A stretch of DNA of 64,000 bases. Source: an uncultured Thermotogae bacterium. Lineage in GTDB: Bacteria; Bipolaricaulota; Bipolaricaulia; RBG-16-55-9. Below, piece by piece: positions 4,534 to 20,444 of the stretch; the stretch's first letter is position 1; every line of letters begins with the position of its first letter. Made by a program: the position numbers and the translations under genes. Below the pieces are notes generated by a model, which saw only the letters and a program-made list of their open reading frames with translations, ran no database searches and had not been told where the DNA came from. Location of the stretch: assembly GCA_964567595.1 (NCBI GenBank), contig CAZMNF010000005.1, positions 305-64,304 of the forward strand. Reading direction: 5' to 3'.

Positions 4534-6383
4534 TCGCCTCTCCTTCCGACAATACCTGCCCAACGGGGGCGATCATAGGTCCACAGCTCGACGACGAGCA
4601 GGCCGAGCCCCAGCGCCAAGGCCCAGGGCCACAGCGGCCGTTCCGACGCCAGGGCGCGATCGTCAGCAGCCGGGGACGGCGTCGGGGCAGCCGTCGTCGA
4701 GGCCGCGTTGTCGCTGGGCCGGCTCAACTTGGATTCGGACGCCGGCACGTTGGCCGCGAAGTCGTACGTGGTTGAGCCCTGCGTGACCCGATAGATGCCG
4801 GGCTGGTCAAGGCGCCCGCACGCGGCATCGTCCTGCCCCACCCGACACGAGCGGCCGTCGGGATCCGTGATCTGGGCTTCCCCTTCCAGGCGATCGAGCG
4901 GCAGCTCCTCCCCGGCGACGAACGCGGTCGTGCGGTCGACGCGCGGCGCGAGCCACTCCGTCAGGCGCGACAAGAGGATGGGAAAGTCGACGGACAGACC
5001 CAAGTTGGATTGGCTCAGGTCAACGCCGACGTAGGCCAGCCGAACGCTCCCACTGGCCACCACGTAGAGGACGGGGGACCCGTCGGCGGACAGGAGGACC
5101 TCGCCATCCGAGGCGACCTCCACCGCGGGCACCTCGCCCAGGCGCCAATCGCTCGGGTCTACCCCCTGTAGCGTCGGATGATCGCGCTCGATGACGACGT
5201 CACCGCCGGAGGTGCCCGGCGTCGCCTCGATCCACGGCGGCATGGCGCTGCCCACGAGCAGATAGCGACCGGGCTGGGGGGACTCGATCGTCGTGTTGTG
5301 GGCGAGCGTCAAGTCGGCGCCCTCGGGCGACGACGTCGCCGACTCCTCGCCTTGGCGGATGACTTCAGCACGCCCGGCCCGCTCAAAGAAACGGCTCAAA
5401 TAGAAGCTATCCTCGCCAACCCAGCGGATCCGCCGTGGGCGCTGCTGCGGCAGCGTCGCGTAGCGGGCGTTGTCGTCGGAGCGCGCGTCCGGCCCCTCCC
5501 CCGGATCGATCTCGGCGACGAACGGGCCCGCCGGCACTTCCGGGCGACTGACGTCCAGCTCGGCCGTGCCCTTGGCCGGCACGTCGACGGCCTGCTCCGC
5601 CACGGTCGCCTCGGACGAGCGGATCTCGACCGGCAAAGACCGTTCGGCATCGTCCCCGTTCCAAACCTGGAGCACGAAGGCGACGCCTCGACCGTTCGGC
5701 TGCGACCGAGCTTTGAACGAGGTCACCGCGACGTTCGCCGTCTCGGCCCCCGACCCGATCACCTCGATCTGCCAGCCGAGAGCCGCCACCTGGGCCGACG
5801 GCGGTTCGTCGGTCAGATAGACCACGCGATCGACGCCGTTCGGGAACTGGCTCTCCACCAGGCGCAGCAGGGCCGCCGGATCCGCATTGTTCTGATAGCT
5901 CGGCTCAAAGCCGTCAAGAACGCGCCGAACGGTCGCATGAGTCGTCGTCGGCGCGACCAATAGCTCGCTGTTGCGCTGAGCTTGGAACAGGGCCGCCTCA
6001 GCCGCGGCGTGGTTCGACAGCACCTCTCGGGCCCTTGCGATGGCCGCTTCGTAGCGAGGCTCGCCGTCGGGCGTCATGTCGGCGCGCATGCTGGCGCTGC
6101 CGTCCAGGACGATCGCGAGCGTCTGCGCCCCTCCAGCTGTGGTGGTCATGACGGGCTGGGCAAGCGCCAGCACGACGGCGATGAGCGCGAGCAGCTGGAG
6201 GATCAACCCGAGCAAGGGCATCCGTTCCAGGCGCAGCGCGCTTCGCGGCTGGCGCTCCACGCCGCGCCAGAACAAAAGCGACGACACGTAGCGCGGCTCC
6301 GCCTGGCGCTTGAGGAAATAGATCGCGGCGACGAGGCCGCCAAGGCCCAACAGCCAGAGCGCACCGCTCGCAAGCAGCGTCAT
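4530..6383 (-). CDS. BatA-N-terminal/vWA domain membrane protein
   Basis: N-terminal TM helix plus LLFWRGVERQP-type aerotolerance-regulator N-domain. vWA motif LAIVLDGSASM and a C-terminal TM. 4-nt overlaps with both neighbours. Confidence 0.8.
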   Translation of the reverse strand: MTLLASGALWLLGLGGLVAAIYFLKRQAEPRYVSSLLFWRGVERQPRSALRLERMPLLGLILQLLALIAVVLALAQPVMTTTAGGAQTLAIVLDGSASMRADMTPDGEPRYEAAIARAREVLSNHAAAEAALFQAQRNSELLVAPTTTHATVRRVLDGFEPSYQNNADPAALLRLVESQFPNGVDRVVYLTDEPPSAQVAALGWQIEVIGSGAETANVAVTSFKARSQPNGRGVAFVLQVWNGDDAERSLPVEIRSSEATVAEQAVDVPAKGTAELDVSRPEVPAGPFVAEIDPGEGPDARSDDNARYATLPQQRPRRIRWVGEDSFYLSRFFERAGRAEVIRQGEESATSSPEGADLTLAHNTTIESPQPGRYLLVGSAMPPWIEATPGTSGGDVVIERDHPTLQGVDPSDWRLGEVPAVEVASDGEVLLSADGSPVLYVVASGSVRLAYVGVDLSQSNLGLSVDFPILLSRLTEWLAPRVDRTTAFVAGEELPLDRLEGEAQITDPDGRSCRVGQDDAACGRLDQPGIYRVTQGSTTYDFAANVPASESKLSRPSDNAASTTAAPTPSPAADDRALASERPLWPWALALGLGLLVVELWTYDRPRWAGIVGRRGE

Positions 6384-7255: not shown

Positions 7256-8272
7256 CTACTCCTCGGGAATCGCGTCGCGGACCTGATGCAGGATTGCGTC
7301 GACCGTCACGCCCTCGGCCTCGCCACGGAAATTGCGGATAATGCGATGCCGCAGCGCCGGCTCGACGACGGCGTTGATGTCCCGCAACCGCGTGTTGGGC
7401 TCGCCGTCGAGGAACGCGTTCGCCTTGGCGCCCCACAACAGCGCAATCGCGGCTCGCGGACTGGCACCGTAGGAGACGTAGTCCTGGACCATTTGCGGCG
7501 CTTCCTCGGCCTGCGGGTGCGTCGCGTTGACCAGTCGGGTGATGTAGCGTCGCAAGGGGGCGGCCACCGGCATGTCCGCGACCAGGCGTCGGGCCTCCCG
7601 GATCGCGTCCTGGTCGACCATTTGCTCCAGGGAACGGGTCCCTTCCCGACTCGTCAGGTGACGCTCCAGGATCTCATCCAGCTCGTCCAGGTTGGGATAG
7701 TCGAGCACGAGCTTGAAGAAGAAGCGGTCGATCTGGGCCTCGGGGAGCGGGTACGTCCCTTCCATCTCGATGGGATTCTGCGTGGCGAGCACGATGAACG
7801 GCTCCTCCAGTTGATACGTTTCGCCGCCGACGGTGACGCCGCGCTCCTGCATGGCCTCCAAGAGCGCGGACTGCGTCTTCGGCGTCGCCCGGTTGATCTC
7901 GTCGGCAAGCACAATGTGGGCGAATATCGGCCCCGCGGAGAACTGGAAGTAGCGATGCCCGTGCTCGTCCTCGCTGATGATGTTGGTGCCCAAGATATCG
8001 GCCGGCATCAGATCCGGGGTAAACTGGATCCGTGAGAAGTCGAGCCCGAGGATGGTCCCGAGCGATTTGACGAGCATCGTCTTGCCCAAGCCAGGGACGC
8101 CTTCGAGCAGCACGTGGCCGTTGCAGATGAGCGCGATCAGCGTGCCCCGAATCGCTTCTCGATGGCCGACGATGACGGACTCGAGGCCCTCGCGCAGCCG
8201 CCCGAACGTCTCGGCGCCGCTGTCGAGGCGCTGGTCCAATGGCTGGGCACGGCTGGATGGGTTGGGGGCCAT
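7256..8272 (-). CDS. MoxR-family AAA+ ATPase
   Basis: Walker A GVPGLGKT and Walker B VLADEINRA. Length of 338 aa and overall similarity to the AAA_3/MoxR family. Confidence 0.9.
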   Translation of the reverse strand: MAPNPSSRAQPLDQRLDSGAETFGRLREGLESVIVGHREAIRGTLIALICNGHVLLEGVPGLGKTMLVKSLGTILGLDFSRIQFTPDLMPADILGTNIISEDEHGHRYFQFSAGPIFAHIVLADEINRATPKTQSALLEAMQERGVTVGGETYQLEEPFIVLATQNPIEMEGTYPLPEAQIDRFFFKLVLDYPNLDELDEILERHLTSREGTRSLEQMVDQDAIREARRLVADMPVAAPLRRYITRLVNATHPQAEEAPQMVQDYVSYGASPRAAIALLWGAKANAFLDGEPNTRLRDINAVVEPALRHRIIRNFRGEAEGVTVDAILHQVRDAIPEE

Positions 8273-12948: not shown

Positions 12949-13986
12949 ATGACCAGCGATATCATCGAGATCGACGGGTCGAGCGGGGGCGGATCCATTG
13001 TCCGGCTGGGCGTCGGCTTGGCCACCGCTTGCGGCCAGCCGATCCGGATCGTCAACGTCCGGGAGGCTCGCAAGAACCCGGGCCTCAAGGCCCAACATCT
13101 GGCCGGCGTCCAGGCCGTCGCCGATCTGTGCAACGCCGAACTCAATGGGGCCGAGATCCACTCACGCGAGTTGACGTTCGCCCCCGGATCGACGTGGACA
13201 TCGAAGGTCAGCGTCAACATTCCGACGGCGGGCTCGGTGGGGCTAGCCTTGCAACCCATCCAGCTCGCCATGCTGGGTGCTGATCGGGACGTGACTGTGG
13301 AGGTGCAAGGGGGTGGGACCATTGCCAAGTGGGCCCCACCGTTGCCCTATCTCGCCCACGTCACGCATCGCGTCCTGGCCGAGTGGGGCCAACCGATCGA
13401 AGTGTGGACGGACCGCCACGGCTTCTTTCCCAAGGGCGGAGCTCGTGTCCGGGCCCAACTTTCCCCGCCCACGACGGGCGATCCGCTGGAGGTGACCGAC
13501 CGAGGCCGTCTCAAGCGGATCGAAGGTCGATCGCTGGCGAGCGAGGCACTGCGCGAGCGCGAGGTTGCCGAGCGCCAAGCGCAAGCCGCCGAAGCCGAAC
13601 TCCGCGAAGTACTGTCGGAGACGCCCGTCTACGTCGAACCGGGCTACGTCGACACGGCCTCCATCGGGACGGGTATCGTGCTCTGGGCGGTCTTCGAGCA
13701 CACCGTGCTCGGCGCAGACGCGCTGGGCAAGAAGGGCAAACTGGCCGAACAGGTCGGCGGCGAGGCGGCCCGGCATCTCATCCGGGAGATCGCGTCCGAC
13801 GCCACCGTCGACGTCCACCTGGCCGATCAGTTGATCCCCTACATGGCCCTCTACGGAGGGACGTTGCGCTGTCGAACGTGGACGGATCATCTTGAGATCG
13901 CTGTCGAGGTGGTCGAGCGGATGACGGGGGCGACGCCGGACACCCCCGTCGAGAACGGACTGCACACGATCTCGTTTGGGCGTTGA
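12949..13986 (+). CDS. rtcA: RNA 3'-terminal phosphate cyclase
   Basis: N-terminus IEIDGSSGGGSIVRLGVGLATACGQPIRIVNVREARKNPGLKAQHL matches the RtcA family. 345 aa. Confidence 0.85.
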   Translation: MTSDIIEIDGSSGGGSIVRLGVGLATACGQPIRIVNVREARKNPGLKAQHLAGVQAVADLCNAELNGAEIHSRELTFAPGSTWTSKVSVNIPTAGSVGLALQPIQLAMLGADRDVTVEVQGGGTIAKWAPPLPYLAHVTHRVLAEWGQPIEVWTDRHGFFPKGGARVRAQLSPPTTGDPLEVTDRGRLKRIEGRSLASEALREREVAERQAQAAEAELREVLSETPVYVEPGYVDTASIGTGIVLWAVFEHTVLGADALGKKGKLAEQVGGEAARHLIREIASDATVDVHLADQLIPYMALYGGTLRCRTWTDHLEIAVEVVERMTGATPDTPVENGLHTISFGR

Positions 13987-14007
13987 GACGGGCGATCCCG
14001 GGGTCGT

Positions 14008-14553
14008 CTAATACGGCCCGCCATCGTCGTCATCGCCGTCATCGGAGGCGGAGTCGGACGGCACGACCTCGAGGAGGGCGTTCATGCCCCGCTTGAAGTG
14101 ATCGCCGGAGGTGCCATGGCCCACGTGGCAGCTCAGGTTGAACGTGAGGCTCTGGCCGTCCGCGACCGTGAGCAGCTCGGGCGTGAGCTCGATCTCCAAC
14201 GACTCGCCCGGCGCCACCGACCGAACCGTGTCCTTCCCCAATGTACCGTCCTCGAGCGCCTGATCGTTGAAGAGCGGACTGACCACCTGATGCCCAATGT
14301 TGGCGGTGTTCTCGAAGACCAGGGTGGTCGTCTGATTGTTGTTCAACTTGGCCACGACCGTCGGGGTCTCCGTCGAGTCGGATCGACCCTCCGGCCCTTC
14401 GAAATAGAAGCTGCCCAGCTCGATCGTGATCCGGTCGTCCGCGCCTTGGGCCTGGGCTTCGGGGCCCAACGAGGGACCCAACACCCAATAGCCGGCTGCG
14501 ACGGCCGCCAGCGCGACGACAAGTCCTATCCCCGTCCAACGACGGATGTTCAT
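14008..14553 (-). CDS. Secreted cupredoxin-like protein (candidate type-1 Cu site)
   Basis: Start at ATG 14553 (MNIRRWTGIGLVVALAAVAA signal anchor) with a GGAGG SD. Candidate Cu ligands in NIGHQVV and SCHVGHGTSGDHFKRGM. Acidic D-rich tail. Confidence 0.6.
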   Translation of the reverse strand: MNIRRWTGIGLVVALAAVAAGYWVLGPSLGPEAQAQGADDRITIELGSFYFEGPEGRSDSTETPTVVAKLNNNQTTTLVFENTANIGHQVVSPLFNDQALEDGTLGKDTVRSVAPGESLEIELTPELLTVADGQSLTFNLSCHVGHGTSGDHFKRGMNALLEVVPSDSASDDGDDDDGGPY

Positions 14554-14602
14554 GGCATCGACCTCCAAATTCCTTGCTGCTTGGCCAGAATGAACGCGGA
14601 TC

Positions 14603-14645
14603 GCGGGGTCAAATCTCAACCAACCGCCGGTCAACCCGAGGTCAA
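14603..14645 (-). promoter_or_regulatory. Four phased direct repeats (11-bp register) upstream of the cupredoxin gene
   Basis: Minus strand reads TTGACCtcggg TTGACCggcgg TTGGTTgagat TTGACCccgc. The proximal repeat ends 53 nt before ATG 14553. Confidence 0.55.
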
Positions 14646-14664
14646 CGAAGCGCCCTGCGGGGCC

Positions 14665-15324
14665 CTACTGGAGATTGTCAATCCACGCCAGAATGGCCCG
14701 TGCGCTGCCCTGGGTGGGCTGATCGACTTCCTCGCGGGAGCCGAGTGCGGCGATAAGCATCGCTTGGGCCTGTCGAACGTGCTGGGCCGCGCTCTCCGGG
14801 TCGTCTTCGGCTCCATCGAGGGCCTTTGCCAAGTTCCCGACGGCCCACTGGAGGAAGAGGTCCACGTTTTCCGCGGCGATCTTATAGTCCGTTCCCTGCG
14901 ACATGTCGTCGATGATGGCGCGCATCCGCTCGGCATGGACGAGCGCGCCGACGCCATCGCCGACGCCGTCGTCGGAATCGCCGTAGGATGGGTCGTAGTG
15001 CTCGCCGTCTGGGCCCTCGAGAACGTTGAGCGCGCGATGGGCGTTGGTCATCCCGCCTTCGATGTCCTCGCGTTGAAGGGCATCCCAGGCAAACAGAACG
15101 TAGGTCAGTGCCTCCGAGGTCTGGGCAATCGTGTCGTTGGTTTGGGTCTTCAAATTTTGCAGCGTCTCGTCCGTTGCGCCATCCCATTGCGACACGGACA
15201 TGGCGCCCAGGCCGCTCAGCGACAGCGCGAGCAAGAGCCCAACAACGATCCCACGATGGGGCCAGCGGCGTCGTGACATGGCAATCTCCGCCTCCTTGTC
15301 CAGGTATCGAGTCTCTGCGGTCAT
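14665..15324 (-). CDS. Hypothetical exported all-alpha protein
   Basis: ATG 15324 overlaps the regulator stop as ATGA (translational coupling). TM/signal segment IVVGLLLALSLSGLGA. No recognisable domain. Confidence 0.6.
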   Translation of the reverse strand: MTAETRYLDKEAEIAMSRRRWPHRGIVVGLLLALSLSGLGAMSVSQWDGATDETLQNLKTQTNDTIAQTSEALTYVLFAWDALQREDIEGGMTNAHRALNVLEGPDGEHYDPSYGDSDDGVGDGVGALVHAERMRAIIDDMSQGTDYKIAAENVDLFLQWAVGNLAKALDGAEDDPESAAQHVRQAQAMLIAALGSREEVDQPTQGSARAILAWIDNLQ

Positions 15325-16322
15325 GGGGCATCTTCTTCGCCGTTGGTTGAGGACGAGCCTTGTAGGGCGAGCTTGTAGCCGAACCCGCGCACGGTGACGA
15401 TCAGCTCGGGACGGCCGGCGTCGCGTTCCAACTTCTGACGCAGGAGATAGACGTATTGCTTGACGTCCTTTGACGTGGGCGCATTCGCGTTCTGCGACGC
15501 CCAGACTTCCTCCAGGATCTCGCGGTTGGAGAAGACGCGGCCGGGCTCGGAGGCCAAGAGCCGAACCAAGTCGTATTCCGTCGGCGTCAACTCCACGACA
15601 TGGTCGTCAACGTAGACCTCCTTGCCGCGCGGATCGATCTGGAGGGTGCCGAGGCGGATCCAGTCGTTGTGACTGGCCGTGCTTGCTCCATTCGCTTGGG
15701 TCGGCTCGATGGCTCGGCCCGAATCGGACGCGGGGACCGCATCGGCCGCGCGCGGACGGGTCCGAACCAGATAGAGCCCAGCGGCCAGGCTGACCGCCAG
15801 AACCAACGCGAGCCCGACGCCGATCGTCAACAACGCTTCGGACTGGAGCGCACTGTTCACGCGCTCCAAGGAAAAGCCGATGCGGACGTAGCTCGGTTCG
15901 CTCGACCCGCTCGAGCCGTTCTGCCCGTCGAGCGGCCGAACCAGTTCGAAGTAGGTCAGTCCACGCTGGAGCGTGCGTTGGCGGCGCTGGCGTTGGCCCG
16001 GATTGTCGGTGACCTCGAGGTCGGCATCGAGGACGGACTCCGTGCGATCTTCGGCGATGACGACGCCGTTCTGAACGACCTGAGCAAAGAGAACGTCGCC
16101 ACGCACGAACGCCTGGGTCAACGTTTGCAAGCGGGTCTCGTCCGAGGCTTGGCCGACCGACTCGGTGAAGATCTGCGCGGACAGCGCCGCTCGTGACTCG
16201 AACTGGGCACGGAAGCTTTCATGGAACCGAGAGAGGTGGAGTGCGCCCAACACCGTGGTCAGCACGAGCGTGAGCCCCACCAACAGTGTCGCCCAGATGG
16301 CGGACCGACGCCATCGCTTCAT
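15321..16322 (-). CDS. Transmembrane one-component regulator with C-terminal OmpR/PhoB-type winged-helix domain
   Basis: ATG 16322 (MKRWRRSAIW) after a GAGGGGG SD. TM1, then about 165 aa extracytoplasmic, then TM2 (LLTIGVGLALVLAVSLAAGLYLV). C-terminus LTPTEYDLVRLLASEPGRVFSNREILEEVW...VRGFGYKL is Trans_reg_C. No kinase or receiver domain. Confidence 0.8.
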   Translation of the reverse strand: MKRWRRSAIWATLLVGLTLVLTTVLGALHLSRFHESFRAQFESRAALSAQIFTESVGQASDETRLQTLTQAFVRGDVLFAQVVQNGVVIAEDRTESVLDADLEVTDNPGQRQRRQRTLQRGLTYFELVRPLDGQNGSSGSSEPSYVRIGFSLERVNSALQSEALLTIGVGLALVLAVSLAAGLYLVRTRPRAADAVPASDSGRAIEPTQANGASTASHNDWIRLGTLQIDPRGKEVYVDDHVVELTPTEYDLVRLLASEPGRVFSNREILEEVWASQNANAPTSKDVKQYVYLLRQKLERDAGRPELIVTVRGFGYKLALQGSSSTNGEEDAP

Positions 16323-16420
16323 GGCCCTTTTCCCCCTCTTGGCTTGCGAAACACCGAATATGCTACCGGCTCTTGCAGATCCGGACAATGGAAAGCTTGG
16401 GGAGCGCATCTCGGGGGAAG

Positions 16421-16460
16421 CGGGACGCGGTCGACGGGCTATGCGGCCGACCGCGTCCCG
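16421..16460 (-). terminator. Strong 13-bp GC hairpin between the CHRD gene and the regulator gene
   Basis: cgggacgcggtcg-(14 nt loop)-cgaccgcgtcccg, a perfect 13-bp stem starting 24 nt downstream of the CHRD stop. No U-tract follows. Confidence 0.45.
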
Positions 16461-16483
16461 GGGTCTAAGGGGTGGTCACCTCG

Positions 16484-16990
16484 TTACTGAGGCGTAATCT
16501 GGCCACGGAGCTCGCCGGGTTCGTTCAGCGGCGTGTGAATGTTGAAGTAGAGGTCCCCGGCCATCAGTGCTTGGACCATGTCCTCCGGGATCTCCCACGT
16601 TCCCTGGAGGAACCCGCTCGCGCCTGGACACTCGCCGACGATGGCCGGCTCCGGACCGCCGCAGATGGTCTGCACCACGGGGCCCGCGGTGCCGGGCGCG
16701 CCGTTGTGGAAGTGCGCCGCCACGGCCGCCTCGCTCAAGCCTCGATACGAGAAGGCAAATTGGAGCGTCCCCTCGTCGGGGTTGTACAAGAGCGTTCCCG
16801 AGCCGACTGCCGTCGCGGGCGTCTCGGCCGCGGGCGTGGGCACCTCTTGGGTTGCTGTGATCGTCGTGGAGAAGACGATGGTGTTGCTGGGCGTTTCGTC
16901 CTCCATCTGACCGACGGAGCTCACCGACGCCATTAGAAGGACCCCGAGGCTCAACACCCCGATCGTCTTCAGCGAACGTGTCACGTTCAT
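16484..16990 (-). CDS. Secreted CHRD domain protein
   Basis: Signal peptide MNVTRSLKTIGVLSLGVLLMASV. CHRD-like motifs AAHFHNGAPGTAGPVV and GDLYFNIHTPLNEPGELRGQI. Confidence 0.75.
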   Translation of the reverse strand: MNVTRSLKTIGVLSLGVLLMASVSSVGQMEDETPSNTIVFSTTITATQEVPTPAAETPATAVGSGTLLYNPDEGTLQFAFSYRGLSEAAVAAHFHNGAPGTAGPVVQTICGGPEPAIVGECPGASGFLQGTWEIPEDMVQALMAGDLYFNIHTPLNEPGELRGQITPQ

Positions 16991-17040
16991 GGAACGACCC
17001 CCTCTGTCTTGTAGGTTAAGGCTTGCTCAACCTAAGCCGA

Positions 17041-17083
17041 GCGGGGTCAAGATGGAACCATCAGCGGGTCAAATCATTGTCAA
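17041..17083 (-). promoter_or_regulatory. Four phased direct repeats (11-bp register) upstream of the CHRD gene
   Basis: Minus strand reads TTGACAatgat TTGACCcgctg ATGGTTccatc TTGACCccgc. The proximal repeat ends 54 nt before ATG 16990. The architecture matches 14603-14645. Confidence 0.55.
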
Positions 17084-17114
17084 TTCGCTAGGTCTGCCTG
17101 CCCAGAGCGGCCGA

Positions 17115-18731
17115 TTATGCCGACGTGGCGTTGACGCGAACCCGATCGTAGCCCGTCGAGCCATCGGGATAGGAGGCGCTGCTGTCGGCCGTCTGCATGC
17201 GTCCCTCTCCGTCGATAACGCGCGCTCGCAGGGCGTACGCTCCGGTTTGGGACGGCTCCCAAACCACGGCCCAGCGGCGCCAACTGTAGGGGGCATCGTC
17301 CTGGGCTTCGACTTGGGCCTCTCGCCACGTCTCGCCGTTGTCCGTGCTGACCTCAACGGCCGACACCCCATGGACGCCAGCGAAGGCCACCCCGGCGATG
17401 AACTGCGGCTCGCCCGCTTTGACCCGCGCATCCAGGTCGGGCGTTTCGATCTTGGCAAAGGGATGGATGTCGGCCTCGTCGCTCCAGCCGCGGTTCTGCC
17501 AGTAGCCTTGATAGTCGGCTTCGGTCGCGACGATCCGGTCGAGGTGCTTGACGTTTTTGACGCCATAGTAGCCGGGAATGACGACCCGGAGCGGATAACC
17601 GTGCTTCGGCGTCAATTCCTTGCCGTTCATCGCCCACGCGAGCATGATCTCCTCATTGTTCATGATGAGCTCAACCGGAAGGCTGTCGGAATAGCCGTCG
17701 GCGGCGTGCAGCTCCAGGTCCTTGGCGCCGTCCTGAATGCCGGCCTGCTCCAAGAGCGTCCGGAACGACGTGCCGGTCCAGCGAGCATTGCTCATGAGGT
17801 CGCGCGTGGCCGGCTTCGTGGCCTTATAGTCGATGCAGACCAGCGTGACGTGTTGGTCAAATTGGGGGAGCTGTTTGATATCGTCCAAAGACAACTCCAG
17901 TGGCGAGTCGACTAGCCCCTCGACCTTGAGCGGCTCCCATGTCGCCACCCCCGTGCGGTACACCTGGATGTTTTTGGAGACATAGTAGAAGTCCTCCTGC
18001 GGCGTCAGCCACGGCGACAGATCGGGGACCGCCTCAAAGTCGATATCGCCGGGCGTTGCCAATTCAGCGGCCTCGGACGTCCCGCCCGAGGACGCGGCTC
18101 GCGAGGCGCTATCCGCCGTGGAGGGCCGCAGGTTGGCGCGCACCCAGGGCCACAGCGCGGCGGCTCCGGCCACGGTGCCCACGCGCACCAGCATTCGGCG
18201 CCGCGTCAACTGGGCTTTGGCTCGGGGCAAGGTTTCGGCGCCTTCGCTCGTCTCGCCAGCGCTTGGGCGGGTCGAGCCCGCGCTCAACCACCGGCGGAGG
18301 CTTGGGGTCAGCCATCCGAAGAGCACCGCTGCCGTCAGACCGCCGGCCAAGGCGTTCGTGACGTTCACGACTTGGACGGCCGACACGCTGAGGGCAAAGC
18401 CGGCGCTCGTGATCGCCAGGGTCGCCGCCACAACGCTGCCGAGCACCCAGCTGCCGGCGCTGCGCAGCGCAACGCCGATCAGACCGCCGGCAACGACCTG
18501 GGCGAGGATCGCCGCATAAAAGCCGAGAATCTTGGCGTCGAACCCGAGCGTCCCGATCATCTCAGCTTGCACGGGACCGGGCACGACAGCGAAGACCCAT
18601 TGGGCAAACAGATCGGGCCAGAAGAACCAACCGGTCGTCTGATAGGCCGCGTACCCGGCGACGGTCGCCATCAGAGCCGCGAGGGCTCCGCTCCAGAGTC
18701 CAGCGCTTCGGTCCGGGCTATCGTATTCCAT
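17115..18731 (-). CDS. Sulfite-oxidase-family molybdopterin oxidoreductase fused to an N-terminal polytopic membrane domain
   Basis: HGYPLRVVIPGYYGVKNVKHLDRI (Moco-binding fold) plus a C-terminal Mo-co dimerisation-like Ig domain. About five N-terminal TM helices, then LTRRRMLVRVGTVAGAAAL. ATG 18731 chosen; a TTG at 18761 is an alternative. Confidence 0.8.
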   Translation of the reverse strand: MEYDSPDRSAGLWSGALAALMATVAGYAAYQTTGWFFWPDLFAQWVFAVVPGPVQAEMIGTLGFDAKILGFYAAILAQVVAGGLIGVALRSAGSWVLGSVVAATLAITSAGFALSVSAVQVVNVTNALAGGLTAAVLFGWLTPSLRRWLSAGSTRPSAGETSEGAETLPRAKAQLTRRRMLVRVGTVAGAAALWPWVRANLRPSTADSASRAASSGGTSEAAELATPGDIDFEAVPDLSPWLTPQEDFYYVSKNIQVYRTGVATWEPLKVEGLVDSPLELSLDDIKQLPQFDQHVTLVCIDYKATKPATRDLMSNARWTGTSFRTLLEQAGIQDGAKDLELHAADGYSDSLPVELIMNNEEIMLAWAMNGKELTPKHGYPLRVVIPGYYGVKNVKHLDRIVATEADYQGYWQNRGWSDEADIHPFAKIETPDLDARVKAGEPQFIAGVAFAGVHGVSAVEVSTDNGETWREAQVEAQDDAPYSWRRWAVVWEPSQTGAYALRARVIDGEGRMQTADSSASYPDGSTGYDRVRVNATSA

Positions 18732-18777
18732 GGCTTCACAGGATAACGACTCGATCGCCAAACGCGAATCGTTGCCC

Positions 18778-18794
18778 GGTCAAAGGGAAGTCAA
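18778..18794 (-). promoter_or_regulatory. Two phased direct repeats upstream of the Moco oxidoreductase gene
   Basis: Minus strand reads TTGACTtccct TTGACC, 46 nt upstream of ATG 18731. Same hexamer and 11-bp register as the other two sites. Confidence 0.4.
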
Positions 18795-18869
18795 AGTTCC
18801 CATCTATCCGGCCAAGTCGCCCAGGCAACAGCCGTTTGACAGCCGAAGCAGCAGGCAAGTGCCAGCGAG

Positions 18870-19640
18870 TCAGATCTCGTAGTTGCTGAGGATCTTCTTC
18901 TCCTCGCCGCGGATGTCGACGCGGATCTCGAAGTGGTCCTTGATGCCCGAGGATTGGAGCTTGCGTTTGAGCAGGTTGTCGATCTGGAAAATGCCGGCGG
19001 AATTGGACATGCGAATTTCAATGCAGACGGGATTGCTCTCGCCTTCGTGGACGATTACCTTTTCGATCGCCTTCGCGCTGACGGCATGGATCGTTGGCGA
19101 TCCCTGTCGAAACGGAATCCGAGCGCGACCTTCTTCCATGTCAAGCGCATCGGCGACCTTCAATACGCCCGCTTCGACCGTCAACGGGTCGATGTCGGTG
19201 CGATGGGCATAGATCGCGTGCAGCGTCTCCGAGGTGATGATGGCCTTTTCGCGGCCCTCATAGAGCCCCTCGATGAGCTCTCGGATGAGCGGCGGCGCCA
19301 GGCTGACGGAGAAGTCCTCGTGGTTCTGCCGATGCACGACGTGACCAATGTCATGCAGACAGGAGGCCAAGACGACCACACATTCGGCGTCTTCCGCGGT
19401 CAGCCCATGATCCGCCACGATGCTCGGCGTGATCTCCTGATCCACCAGAATCCGGAACATCTTGAGCGCCATGTTGGTGACGACCTTGATGTGGATGGGG
19501 CCATGGTCGTTGATGCCCATGCGGTTGATGGCGATGACGTTGGAGCACTGCCAGTACGTGCGCAGCGTGTCGTGATGTTCGACGCGATCAACAAGCGTCT
19601 GCAGTTTCTCGTTATCTTGCGCAGGCACGTTCAACGCCAT
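18870..19640 (-). CDS. HD-domain metal-dependent phosphohydrolase (archaeal-like)
   Basis: HD motif region ASCLHDIGHVVHRQNHEDF and an upstream HGPIH. 256 aa. Visibly lower GC than its neighbours. Overlaps nadM by 10 nt. Confidence 0.75.
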   Translation of the reverse strand: MALNVPAQDNEKLQTLVDRVEHHDTLRTYWQCSNVIAINRMGINDHGPIHIKVVTNMALKMFRILVDQEITPSIVADHGLTAEDAECVVVLASCLHDIGHVVHRQNHEDFSVSLAPPLIRELIEGLYEGREKAIITSETLHAIYAHRTDIDPLTVEAGVLKVADALDMEEGRARIPFRQGSPTIHAVSAKAIEKVIVHEGESNPVCIEIRMSNSAGIFQIDNLLKRKLQSSGIKDHFEIRVDIRGEEKKILSNYEI

Positions 19641-20188
19641 GCGGGACGATCCTCCTCGGCGGGCTCCTCATCGTCGGCCGCGACCTGGTCGTTCTCGTAG
19701 ATCGTGCGGAGCCGCTCGATCCCCTTGATCTCGTCGATCACGTCGACGACCGGGTCGGGCACGTCCTCGCGCCACCTCTCGCCTTCGATCATCAGTTGGC
19801 GGATCCGCGTTCCCCAGAGATGGCGGCGGTCGATGTGGGGCATCTCGTTGACGGGGATGTCGACTTCCTCGAAGAGCCGAATGACGAGCGGGTTGTTGGA
19901 GTAGACGACGTCGAAATCGGGGGTCAGTCGTTTGATGTGGGGGACGTAGAGCGAGTTCTGCTCGATGTCCTCGATGGGAAGCACGTAGCGGAAGACGGGA
20001 TCGTCCCTCAGCATCTGGGTGATCATCAGGATGCGCTCGCCGGCGGTGAACGGATCGCGGATCGTGTGGCTGTACTGGGCGGAACCGATGGCGATGATCA
20101 GCTCGTCCACCTCGGCGGCAATGCGCCGAACCACCGCCTCGTGGCCGTTGTGATACGGCTGGAACCGTCCCAAGAACAGCGCGCGCAC
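19631..20188 (-). CDS. nadM: Archaeal-type nicotinamide-nucleotide adenylyltransferase
   Basis: ALFLGRFQPYHNGHEAVVRRI (HxGH nucleotidyltransferase motif) and IAIGSAQYSHTIRDPFTAGER. GTG start 20188 chosen because the track's N-terminal extension overlaps the upstream gene. Confidence 0.75.
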   Translation of the reverse strand: MRALFLGRFQPYHNGHEAVVRRIAAEVDELIIAIGSAQYSHTIRDPFTAGERILMITQMLRDDPVFRYVLPIEDIEQNSLYVPHIKRLTPDFDVVYSNNPLVIRLFEEVDIPVNEMPHIDRRHLWGTRIRQLMIEGERWREDVPDPVVDVIDEIKGIERLRTIYENDQVAADDEEPAEEDRPAWR

Positions 20189-20195
20189 TCGTCCG

Positions 20196-20444
20196 TCAGG
20201 CAAGGGCGCTCGCCACCTTGGCTTGCACGTCCGCCACGGCTGGCGGCAACTCGCCGGGCTCAATTTCACGCACGGGCTCGCCGTCGAGCCTGACGGCGAA
20301 GACGCCGCGCGTGCCAGGCACAAGCGTCAACCCGTGGATACGCTCCGGGAATTCGGTCAACAGCGCCTCGGCCACTTCAAGCGCCCGCTCGAGGTACATG
20401 CACTCGACGCAATACTCGATCTGAACGTCAGCCATGCTGGCCAT
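20196..20444 (-). CDS. SelW/Rdx-family small redox protein (Cys form)
   Basis: 82 aa with IEYCVECMY (CxxC) near the N-terminus, followed by the FPERI...LVPGTRGVFAVRLDGEPV pattern typical of Rdx proteins. Confidence 0.7.
   Translation of the reverse strand: MASMADVQIEYCVECMYLERALEVAEALLTEFPERIHGLTLVPGTRGVFAVRLDGEPVREIEPGELPPAVADVQAKVASALA

Follow-up and report, generated by a model that had tools for sequence, protein, structure and literature searches.

The minus strand of the 64-kb window analysed here, i.e., the whole stretch taken from contig CAZMNF010000005.1 of an uncultured bacterium of the Bipolaricaulota, carries three arrays of TTGAC-type direct repeats, each of which lies 5' of a gene for an extracytoplasmic protein, and which are placed on either side of the gene of a predicted membrane-anchored OmpR-type regulator (15321..16322, 333 aa; Pfam Trans_reg_C, 7.6e-21). 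The genes and sites of this module are all on the minus strand, and the coordinates of the arrays are given on that strand in the gene sense. The first of the array-bearing genes (17115..18731) encodes a membrane-anchored molybdenum-cofactor (Moco) oxidoreductase of the sulfite-oxidase fold, with 538 aa and hydrophobic segments at aa 66-122, which matches Pfam Oxidored_molyb (1.5e-43) and Mo-co_dimer, the nearest NCBIfam models being the SorA and SoxC sulfite dehydrogenases, under their cut-offs. The second (16484..16990) encodes a secreted CHRD protein of 168 aa (Pfam CHRD, 3.9e-26) with an N-terminal hydrophobic segment, and the third (14008..14553) a small secreted cupredoxin-like protein, which has the ligand motif H...SCHVGH...H...GM, kept in five orthologues, and no match in Pfam, NCBIfam or PDB sequence searches. 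The labels OmpR-type regulator, CHRD and Moco of the initial annotation are confirmed by Pfam, and the name cupredoxin is taken from the ligand motif only.

The array upstream of the Moco oxidoreductase gene (array M, 18756..18794; TTGACTtccctTTGACCgggcaACGATTcgcgtTTGGCG; TTGACTtccctTTGACC from 18794) is composed of the units TTGACT (18794-18789) and TTGACC (18783-18778), followed by two degenerate units, ACGATT (18772-18767) and TTGGCG (18761-18756). The array upstream of the CHRD gene (array C, 17045..17083; TTGACAatgatTTGACCcgctgATGGTTccatcTTGACC, 17083-17045) has the units TTGACA, TTGACC, ATGGTT and TTGACC in an 11-bp phase, and that of the cupredoxin-like gene (array P, 14607..14645; TTGACCtcgggTTGACCggcggTTGGTTgagatTTGACC, 14645-14607) has TTGACC, TTGACC, TTGGTT and TTGACC. 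The common form of the three is TTGACn-N5-TTGACC-N7-GGTT-N7-GACC, array M having it with units 3 and 4 degenerate. The alignment of 36 arrays gives the consensus TTGACn-N5-TTGACC-N7-GGTT (or GGTG/GATT)-N7-GACC, i.e., four hexamer positions at the 11-bp phase, in which units 1 and 2 are the best kept and unit 3 consistently deviates; in one subgroup of arrays an additional unit is present as a 12-nt insertion.

The arrays are far above the chance level in the window. The pattern TTGAC-N6-TTGAC occurs three times, whereas 100 shuffled sequences have 0.05 occurrences on average, and its sole places are 18794, 17083 and 14645, while the 43-bp four-unit pattern has two matches for 0.00 expected. 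In a histogram of the distances between TTGAC motifs on the same strand, just 11, 22 and 33 nt recur. A weight matrix of 51 columns, built from 20 arrays, gives 41.9 bits for array M, 51.7 bits for array C and 43.2 bits for array P, and nothing above 8 bits elsewhere in the window. Both the pattern count and the matrix thus yield only three sites, in agreement with the initial annotation, which had seen no such phased pattern in the other intergenic regions, and whose quoted coordinates and sequences are all correct on the minus strand. Its distances of 53 and 54 nt between the array ends and the start codons are correct when counted from the end of the TTGACC hexamer, but become 49 and 50 nt when the CCGC tail is included.

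The position of the arrays with respect to the putative promoters is equally constant. A TAnnnT hexamer is found 10 (sometimes 11) nt past unit 4 in all 24 of the arrays that precede the Moco gene (4/4, TATCCT or TACCCT), the CHRD gene (4/4, TAGGTT or TAGGGT) and a secreted-protein gene divergent from the regulator gene in more distant relatives (16/16, TAGGGT, TAGCCT, TACGGT and others), for which the background, with the hexamer allowed at two adjacent offsets, is 0.46%. In the window, the candidate -10 hexamers are TATCCT (18740..18745), 10 nt past unit 4 of array M and at the same offset in 4/4 orthologous loci, and TAGGTT (17029..17034), 10 nt past unit 4 of array C, with TAGGTT or TAGGGT in 4/4 orthologous loci. 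It had been noted initially that no good -10 hexamer stands at 17 nt from the proximal repeat, which is correct, although at the Moco and CHRD sites the conserved TAnnnT sits 10 nt away.

When the -10 hexamer is set at -12 to -7, units 1 to 4 fall at -61/-56, -50/-45, -39/-34 and -28/-23, and the spacings of the units to the hexamer are 10, 21, 32 and 43 nt, with no unit at 16-18 nt. No promoter of the sigma-70 consensus was detected when 13900-19000 was scanned with a generic model. Given that the 11-bp direct repeats are on the gene strand, that the proximal repeat ends approximately 10 bp before the -10, and that no -35 is present at 17 bp, all of which define activation of the OmpR/PhoB type, it is concluded by analogy that the site would work like a four-unit core binding region of the PhoP type.

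The start codons provide an independent indication of the transcription start at these putative -10 hexamers, given that they lie only 6-10 nt downstream. The ATG of the Moco gene is 7-8 nt past the hexamer in 4/4 orthologous loci (ATG 18731 in the window, at 8 nt), without a Shine-Dalgarno sequence, and its mRNA is probably leaderless. Similarly, several partner genes located directly downstream of the regulator gene in distant loci have their ATG 6-10 nt past the inferred hexamer. Start codons in this position, with no Shine-Dalgarno sequence, were observed at the Moco gene (18729-18745) and at sites of the latter type in the loci L013, L016, L017, L018 and L024, and in distant loci the start codon of the regulator gene itself is likewise close behind its -10 hexamer, which suggests that leaderless mRNAs are frequent in this lineage.

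A further observation concerns the CHRD promoter, where the TAGGTT hexamer doubles as the left arm of a palindrome, TAGGTT-N6..12-AACCTA, whose right arm is at 17017-17012. The palindrome is found in the window (17012-17034), in L009 (approximately 7284-7306) and in L034 (approximately 4926-4943); it is kept in three of the four relatives and absent from L033, and may represent either an additional operator or a hairpin formed by the DNA at the transcription start. A structured RNA or riboswitch downstream of the repeats was also considered and rejected, as Rfam has no match in 13900-19000 and units 3 and 4, together with the -10 hexamer, account for the conserved positions.

The regulator gene, for its part, has a sigma-70-type promoter with no array, TTGTCC-N17-TAGCAT (16360..16388), which is kept as TTGTCC or TTGCCC, 17 nt and TAGCAT in the window, L009, L033 and L034, and which has its analogue in the distant loci, TTGTnn-N17-TAnnnT, with the ATG 6-7 nt further. 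In seven of these loci (L012, L018, L020, L021, L024, L026 and L027), a single inverted TTGACC is present 5' of the regulator gene, back-to-back with the divergent array, 6 nt from its unit 1 and 9 nt upstream of the -35 of the regulator gene, and may be an autoregulatory half-site.

The predicted layout of the regulator consists of a first transmembrane segment (TM1, aa 7-31), an extracytoplasmic sensor similar to PDC/PAS domains, a second transmembrane segment (TM2, aa 161-187), a disordered linker of approximately 35 residues (aa 188-221) and a winged helix (aa 222-318), the insertion of the two segments in the membrane being predicted from hydropathy. The AlphaFold2 model, built with 66 homologues (pLDDT 87.6), has the same order, in which a long helix (aa 2-58) and a short one precede a sheet of five strands (aa 77-151), after which come another helix (aa 153-187), the disordered region and the winged helix. 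The N-terminal KRWRR and the RTRPR that comes after TM2 fit an in-out-in topology, in which the DNA-binding domain would be cytoplasmic.

The winged helix belongs to the OmpR/PhoB effector domains, given that the Trans_reg_C match (PF00486, aa 242-318) has 74.4 bits against a gathering cut-off of 26.2. The Foldseek search with the C-terminal part returned the effector domains of VicR, YycF, MtrA, PhoP and PhoB, with target-normalised TM-scores of 0.83-0.93 to those of VicR, YycF, PhoB and PhoP, and the nearest solved domains by sequence (phmmer, PDB) are those of MtrA (2.9e-13), HP1043-like proteins, KdpE, ArlR and PhoB. The protein is neither a two-component response regulator, as Pfam finds no Response_reg match and the NCBIfam response-regulator models cover only aa 207-318, far under their cut-offs, nor a sensor histidine kinase, as a HisKA/HATPase_c transmitter is absent from it according to Pfam.

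The N-terminal part, on the other hand, is of the kinase type. Its 209 columns returned the N-terminus of WalK in the Foldseek search, and residues 1-200, compared with 1.84 billion representative proteins, have 57 relatives, most of which have 290-340 aa and are of the regulator family. Seven of them, with 473-509 aa, are histidine kinases with HAMP, HisKA and HATPase_c domains and the common input module, which is 24-32% identical to that of the regulator, and one more such kinase is encoded in L058, 6 kb from the regulator. As shown by sequence and structure prediction together, the protein is a one-component signal transducer without a phosphorelay, i.e., a predicted fusion in which a kinase-type sensor is joined directly to the output domain of a response regulator, without receiver or transmitter.

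Pairs of a kinase and an OmpR-type response regulator are encoded beside the module in several related loci (L058 8145-10297, L013 9508-11549, and similarly in L016, L017, L018 and L024), the sensor module of the L058 kinase having 29% identity to that of the regulator, which hints that a paralogous two-component system gave rise to the one-component regulator or operates alongside it.

The recognition helix of the regulator, SKDVKQYVYL(L/V)Rx(K/R)L, does not vary among the family members, from 80% to 30% overall identity, whereas the canonical response regulators that neighbour some family members have an ordinary helix, PRTIDSHIKNLRHKIE, instead. An invariant unusual helix together with an invariant DNA unit is what is expected of a cognate pair, and no OmpR-type domain other than that of the regulator is encoded in the window. 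The family has 423 database hits, all of them unnamed and none labelled beyond "winged helix-turn-helix protein", and the relatives belong without exception to Candidatus Bipolaricaulota (Acetothermia) or to metagenome-assembled genomes labelled Thermotogae, Caldisericota or Neomarinimicrobiota.

The distribution of the arrays was followed both through the DNA pattern and through the protein. The strict pattern TTGAC-N6-TTGACC-N7-GGTT-N7-GAC, with 18 fixed bases, was searched in 185,579 genomes, each from a different species, and gave 27 stretches, four of which are from the lineage of the window (L002, with three sites, L038, L039 and L046), and all four adjoin a homologue of the regulator gene. 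L038 is from a complete chromosome of 1.73 Mb (CP070725.1), in which the pattern has no other match. No homologue of the regulator is encoded in the 8-kb loci retrieved for the other 23 stretches, and roughly 17 matches are estimated by chance for 18 fixed bases, about as many as the 23 found. A looser three-unit scan with 16 fixed bases was uninformative, given the chance matches among the matches listed. As far as the strict scan and the weight matrix reach, the motif is thus not found at many unrelated promoters, as it would be if it were generic.

The whole block formed by the Moco gene, the CHRD gene, the regulator gene, an open reading frame (ORF) for 204-222 aa and the cupredoxin-like gene is found in L009 (regulator 80% identical), L033 (71%) and L034 (69%), with the array at its three syntenic positions, so that the conservation in orthologous loci called for by the initial annotation was indeed observed. 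As the DNA upstream of the block differs in L034, the five genes travel as a unit. These relatives also show that the Moco site, first taken for a site of two units, has four, given that the orthologous sites are complete, with GGTT and GAC units (that of L034 is TTGACCttccaTTGACCctgcaACGGTTcgcctTTGACG), and those of the window have decayed to ACGATT and TTGGCG. The position of array P is occupied in L009, L010, L033, L034 and L058.

More distant relatives were searched in 22 loci (236 kb) with regulator homologues of 29-80% identity, using TTGAC-N6-TTGACC with one mismatch allowed. In 20 of them, a match is located in the conserved block or no more than about 60 bp from either end of the regulator gene, and only three matches in total are elsewhere. 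The weight matrix was then run over both strands of approximately 392 kb of related DNA, where all of the matches above 11 bits are at the regulator gene or in its block, and in eleven loci it additionally found sites with a degenerate unit 1 where the regulator gene has its 3' end. Three further loci were fetched via intermediate homologues, with regulators 44-50% identical, and have the array before the cupredoxin-like gene (L058), before an operon of CHRD, Copper-bind (PF00127) and Glu_cyclase genes divergent from the regulator gene (L059, 50%), or at the stop codon of the regulator gene and again past the partner gene (L060). In L059, the Copper-bind gene comes after the array-controlled CHRD gene.

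Overall, the array is found at the regulator gene or in its block or operon in 26 of the 28 loci reached through the protein (29-80% identity), and it adjoins the regulator gene down to 29% identity although the neighbouring genes otherwise differ. The farthest array found is within about 3 kb of the regulator gene. The regulon is therefore not "private", as the initial annotation had it, but a family-wide module that is not peculiar to the genome of the window.

The constant neighbours of the regulator across the family are two all-helical secreted or membrane-anchored proteins that have no Pfam or NCBIfam family. The first is encoded divergently from the regulator gene, behind an array (class A), and the second, to which the unk219 gene of the window belongs, directly downstream of it (class B); the two families have just an 18% probability of homology in hhalign. 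In all 19 loci of class B, the array begins exactly 25 nt before the stop codon of the regulator gene, with the TGA inside unit 3 (L011-L029, e.g., L021 8833-8858, L027 2701-2726 and L013 8866-8891). Given this overlap, the C-terminal tail of the regulator (P-V-D-x-E-L-T-D or G-L-T-E-R) is encoded by its own operator.

The unk219 gene of the window (14665..15279) encodes a secreted or membrane-anchored helical bundle of 204 aa from the ATG at 15279, which is 42 nt past the regulator stop and behind a ribosome-binding site of its own; the upstream ATG of the 219-aa ORF would overlap the stop (ATGA). The AlphaFold2 model (pLDDT 84) is an all-helical bundle, and the protein has no Pfam, NCBIfam or PDB match and no significant structural neighbour in the PDB. 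Homologues are found directly 3' of the regulator gene in L009, L010, L011, L013, L015, L022, L024, L026 and L058-L060, L033 and L034 having a family-less gene in this position.

The unk219 gene appears to be co-transcribed with the regulator gene, i.e., in the clade of the window it is inside the regulator operon, and the arrays instead precede the Moco, CHRD and cupredoxin-like genes. The conserved core targets, ancestral to the module, are the two flanking secreted helical proteins, and the genes of the Moco oxidoreductase, the CHRD protein and the cupredoxin-like protein joined the regulon as clade-specific additions. The core targets suggest a feedback through an accessory or co-sensor protein. 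As all of the array-controlled products carry an N-terminal hydrophobic signal or anchor, the regulon is an envelope regulon, and since these products are extracytoplasmic and redox- or copper-related, the best guess from the gene content is that the signal of the regulator is an envelope redox or metal stress.

Given that the same four-repeat site accompanies the regulator gene even where the proteins are only about 30% identical, the three arrays very probably serve as operators for the product of this gene, i.e., the membrane-anchored protein of 15321-16322. The control of the flanking genes by the winged helix-turn-helix protein through OmpR-type repeats, as first proposed, is thus supported, at the level of the sequence, by the synteny, the co-occurrence, the specificity of the motif, the recognition helix and the presence of a sole OmpR domain in the window.

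In the mechanism proposed here, an extracytoplasmic signal would cause four winged-helix domains, probably from two membrane dimers, to bind head-to-tail to the four 11-bp-phased units, centred at approximately -58, -47, -36 and -25. The two distal TTGACC units would be the high-affinity anchors, and the proximal pair of GGTT and GACC, which ends 10 nt before the TAnnnT hexamer, would substitute for the absent -35, so that RNA polymerase would be recruited as at the PhoB and PhoP promoters. In the genome of the window, three separate envelope transcription units (Moco enzyme, CHRD and cupredoxin-like) would be controlled in this manner, the regulator and its helical partner being made from the ordinary sigma-70-type promoter, and in distant relatives the regulator-operator pair would control just the two flanking secreted helical proteins.

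Several points weigh against this interpretation. The arrays of the cupredoxin type are mostly without a clear -10 hexamer (present in 1/5), the locus L035 (44% identity) has no convincing array, presenting an ordinary TTGACA-N17-TATCGT promoter and a doubtful degenerate remnant, and the truncated contig L030 has none. The binding is predicted from co-occurrence and geometry, and the sole indications that the control is an activation are the lack of a -35 and a spacing like that of the pho box. The TTGAC(C/A) unit resembles both the -35 of sigma-70 promoters and the half-site of Firmicutes PhoP, and could be recognised by another OmpR-family protein encoded elsewhere. In addition, four membrane-tethered domains would have to reach one promoter.

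A first alternative is that the arrays are the boxes of a canonical cytoplasmic response regulator of the OmpR/PhoB family encoded elsewhere, e.g., a PhoP-like protein, the membrane protein being merely nearby or competing for the sites. The unit sequence, the four units, the 11-bp phase and the span of -60 to -20 do match the PHO box of B. subtilis, which has four TT(A/T/C)ACA-like repeats with an 11-bp periodicity, and that of Lacticaseibacillus, with four (T/A)T(T/G)ACA repeats (PMC11870197), and several distant loci have a classical pair of kinase and response regulator within 1-3 kb. The clade of the window, however, keeps the arrays without such a pair nearby and without another OmpR-type domain in the window, the membrane regulator is the one constant neighbour of the arrays over 26 loci, and all of the pattern-found matches of the lineage adjoin it. 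The neighbouring response regulators, moreover, have a different and ordinary recognition helix, and no phosphate-uptake gene is among the controlled genes, all of which makes this alternative improbable.

A second alternative accepts the regulator as the binder but has it repress the genes, or both repress and activate them, the occupancy of -28 to -23 and of the -35 zone blocking RNA polymerase until the signal arrives. Unit 4 does lie in the spacer between the -35 and -10 positions and unit 3 overlaps the -35 position, and proteins of the OmpR family, including PhoP and PhoB, can repress from overlapping sites (PMC11825685, PMC4447250). With no usable -35 at 17 nt from the -10, however, these promoters should be weak unaided, activated pho promoters have just this spacing of 10 nt and this orientation on the same strand, and the array-free promoter of the regulator does have a recognisable -35, TTGTCC, so that repression has a low probability. 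The reading of the repeats as a generic promoter feature (tandem -35-like hexamers, an UP-like element or an alternative sigma site), which could draw on TTGACC being one base off the -35 consensus TTGACA and on the TTGACA-N17/18-TAnnnT form of the ordinary promoters of this lineage, is very unlikely and was rejected, given that none of the spacings to the -10 is of 16-18 nt, that the pattern is found neither in the other intergenic regions of the window nor elsewhere in the approximately 392 kb of related DNA, and that the array tracks the regulator gene into unrelated neighbourhoods and even inside its 3' coding end.

With the regulator as the likely binder and activator, it is also possible, although put forward here only tentatively, that the module is a self-contained cis-restricted cassette, in which the tethered protein serves only promoters a few kb from its own gene. 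Such a restriction would explain why all of the operators found are at the regulator gene or in its block, no more than about 2.5 kb away, and also the operator located in the last 25 nt of its coding sequence in class B.

Similar arrangements are known from well-studied systems, with differences in each case. The pho box has two 11-nt units, to which PhoB binds head-to-tail, with the recruitment of sigma (PMC4415409, PMC4447250). The system described here shares with E. coli PhoB and its pho box the OmpR/PhoB winged helix, the 11-bp direct repeats, the possibility of several boxes in tandem, the proximal repeat 10 bp before the -10 and the replacement of the -35. It differs in that the regulator is membrane-anchored and has neither receiver nor phosphorylation, that the unit is TTGACC rather than CTGTCAT, and that the targets are not phosphate genes. 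In the pstS pho box, the proximal repeat likewise ends 10 bp before the -10. In addition, the recognition helix of the regulator carries Tyr, Tyr and Leu at the positions of His, Gln and Arg in MtrA, its closest homologue of known structure.

The PhoP repeats of B. subtilis span approximately -60 to -20, and the likeness to the core region of PhoP in B. subtilis and other Firmicutes thus extends to the four 11-bp-phased hexamers, which are here at -61 to -23 from the inferred -10. In cryo-EM activation complexes, two, four or six PhoP molecules are arranged in tandem (PMC11825685). Unlike the Firmicutes boxes, unit 3 is here consistently GGTT, the putative binder is a transmembrane one-component protein, and the known sites are within approximately 3 kb of the regulator gene. 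Given the absence of a receiver domain and of phosphate genes, as no pst or pho gene adjoins any of the arrays, this is not a Pho regulon.

In the membrane-bound OmpR-type regulators ToxR/ToxS, TcpP/TcpH, VtrA/VtrC and CadC, there is no phosphorelay, and an extracytoplasmic partner is the product of the gene that follows (PMC10269533, PMC9214523). The present system is like these in its predicted membrane tether, its OmpR-type winged helix, the lack of a phosphorelay, and the adjacent partner gene and targets. ToxR also recognises direct repeats, and the cadBA targets of cadC are adjacent to it. In the ToxR-like proteins, the DNA-binding domain is N-terminal, followed by one transmembrane helix and a C-terminal periplasmic domain. 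The topology of the regulator is the reverse, with an N-terminal sensor between two transmembrane segments and a C-terminal DNA-binding domain, and for this reason it is not ToxR-like in the strict sense. Its co-operonic secreted partner is conserved, and is an all-helical bundle that has no detectable similarity to the known partners of the ToxS, TcpH and VtrC type.

Finally, the WalK- and BaeS-like kinases have a TM-PDC-TM input module that is homologous to the N-terminal 200 residues of the regulator. The regulator, however, has no HAMP, HisKA or ATPase domain, and its sensor is wired directly to an output domain of the kind normally found in a partner response regulator. WalK works with the extracytoplasmic accessory proteins YycH and YycI.

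Through this analysis, a family of one-component transmembrane regulators that had been uncharacterised obtains a candidate operator, together with a promoter architecture and a regulon, in a phylum (Bipolaricaulota/Acetothermia) of which, to our knowledge, there are no cultured representatives. The use of a PhoP-like operator by a transmembrane fusion of kinase sensor and OmpR output, in a compact module conserved across an uncultured phylum, is unsurprising in principle, but the case is unusually clean. A histidine-kinase sensor is here joined to an OmpR/PhoB output, and the four-repeat geometry of the PhoP type, from -60 to -20, is retained, which is relevant to the evolutionary passage between two-component systems and regulators bound to the membrane.

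The way in which a regulator tethered to the membrane gets to its promoters has been called poorly understood (PMC10269533), and the module offers a compact case for this question. If the cassette is indeed cis-restricted, it would be a two-component pathway collapsed into one protein with its PhoP-type promoter kept, and a natural system for the study of how membrane-bound transcription factors find DNA. The regulon also connects one envelope signal with proteins of the CHRD, cupredoxin-like and sulfite-oxidase-fold types, about whose roles in bacteria little is known. With 43 bp for the site and approximately 110 residues for the C-terminal domain, both are small and readily testable.

Other features of the module and its surroundings were also observed. 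A G+C-rich hairpin (16422..16459) after the stop codon of the CHRD gene, which is terminator-like without a T run, parts the CHRD unit from the regulator unit and is conserved in L009, L033 and L034. The 22 nt right after this stop codon (cgaggtgaccaccccttagacc; window 16452-16483) are identical in the window and in the same three loci, and in the 10 nt that follow cgaggtgaccaccccttagacc one base differs in one genome, the proteins there being just 70-90% identical. The DNA past the CHRD stop is thus far more conserved than the adjoining coding DNA.

Regulators of the SARP/AfsR-like type, with Trans_reg_C, BTAD and TPR domains, with or without NB-ARC, are encoded a few genes from the module in L033 (14362-16677) and L059 (2394-5591). 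These proteins are unusual outside the actinomycetes, and in SARP regulators the OmpR-type domain is followed by a BTAD domain and binds heptamer repeats at 11 bp that overlap the -35. A SARP/BTAD regulator was rejected as the binder of the arrays, given that BTAD proteins are found near the module only in these two loci and none is encoded in the window; the regulator itself, unlike SARP, has no BTAD domain.

Beside the module, and without an array, the window (18870-20444), L009, L033 and L059 have a conserved trio of genes, which encode a small protein of the Rdx family, a cytidylyltransferase similar to NMN-adenylyltransferases and an HD-domain protein with overlapping reading frames.

Seven of the 23 stretches from outside the lineage in the strict scan are Streptomyces loci, with two related types of site (L004-L006, L008 and L055; L049 and L056), which were treated as unrelated look-alikes since no regulator homologue is nearby. 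The 38-bp site of these loci, TTGACCttcggTTGACCaatcgTTGGTTtcgccTTGACG, is conserved in several species, and that of L006 (2183-2220) contains the palindrome ACCAAnnnTTGGT and is upstream of a small ORF, which is followed by the genes of a beta-carbonic anhydrase and a SulP transporter.

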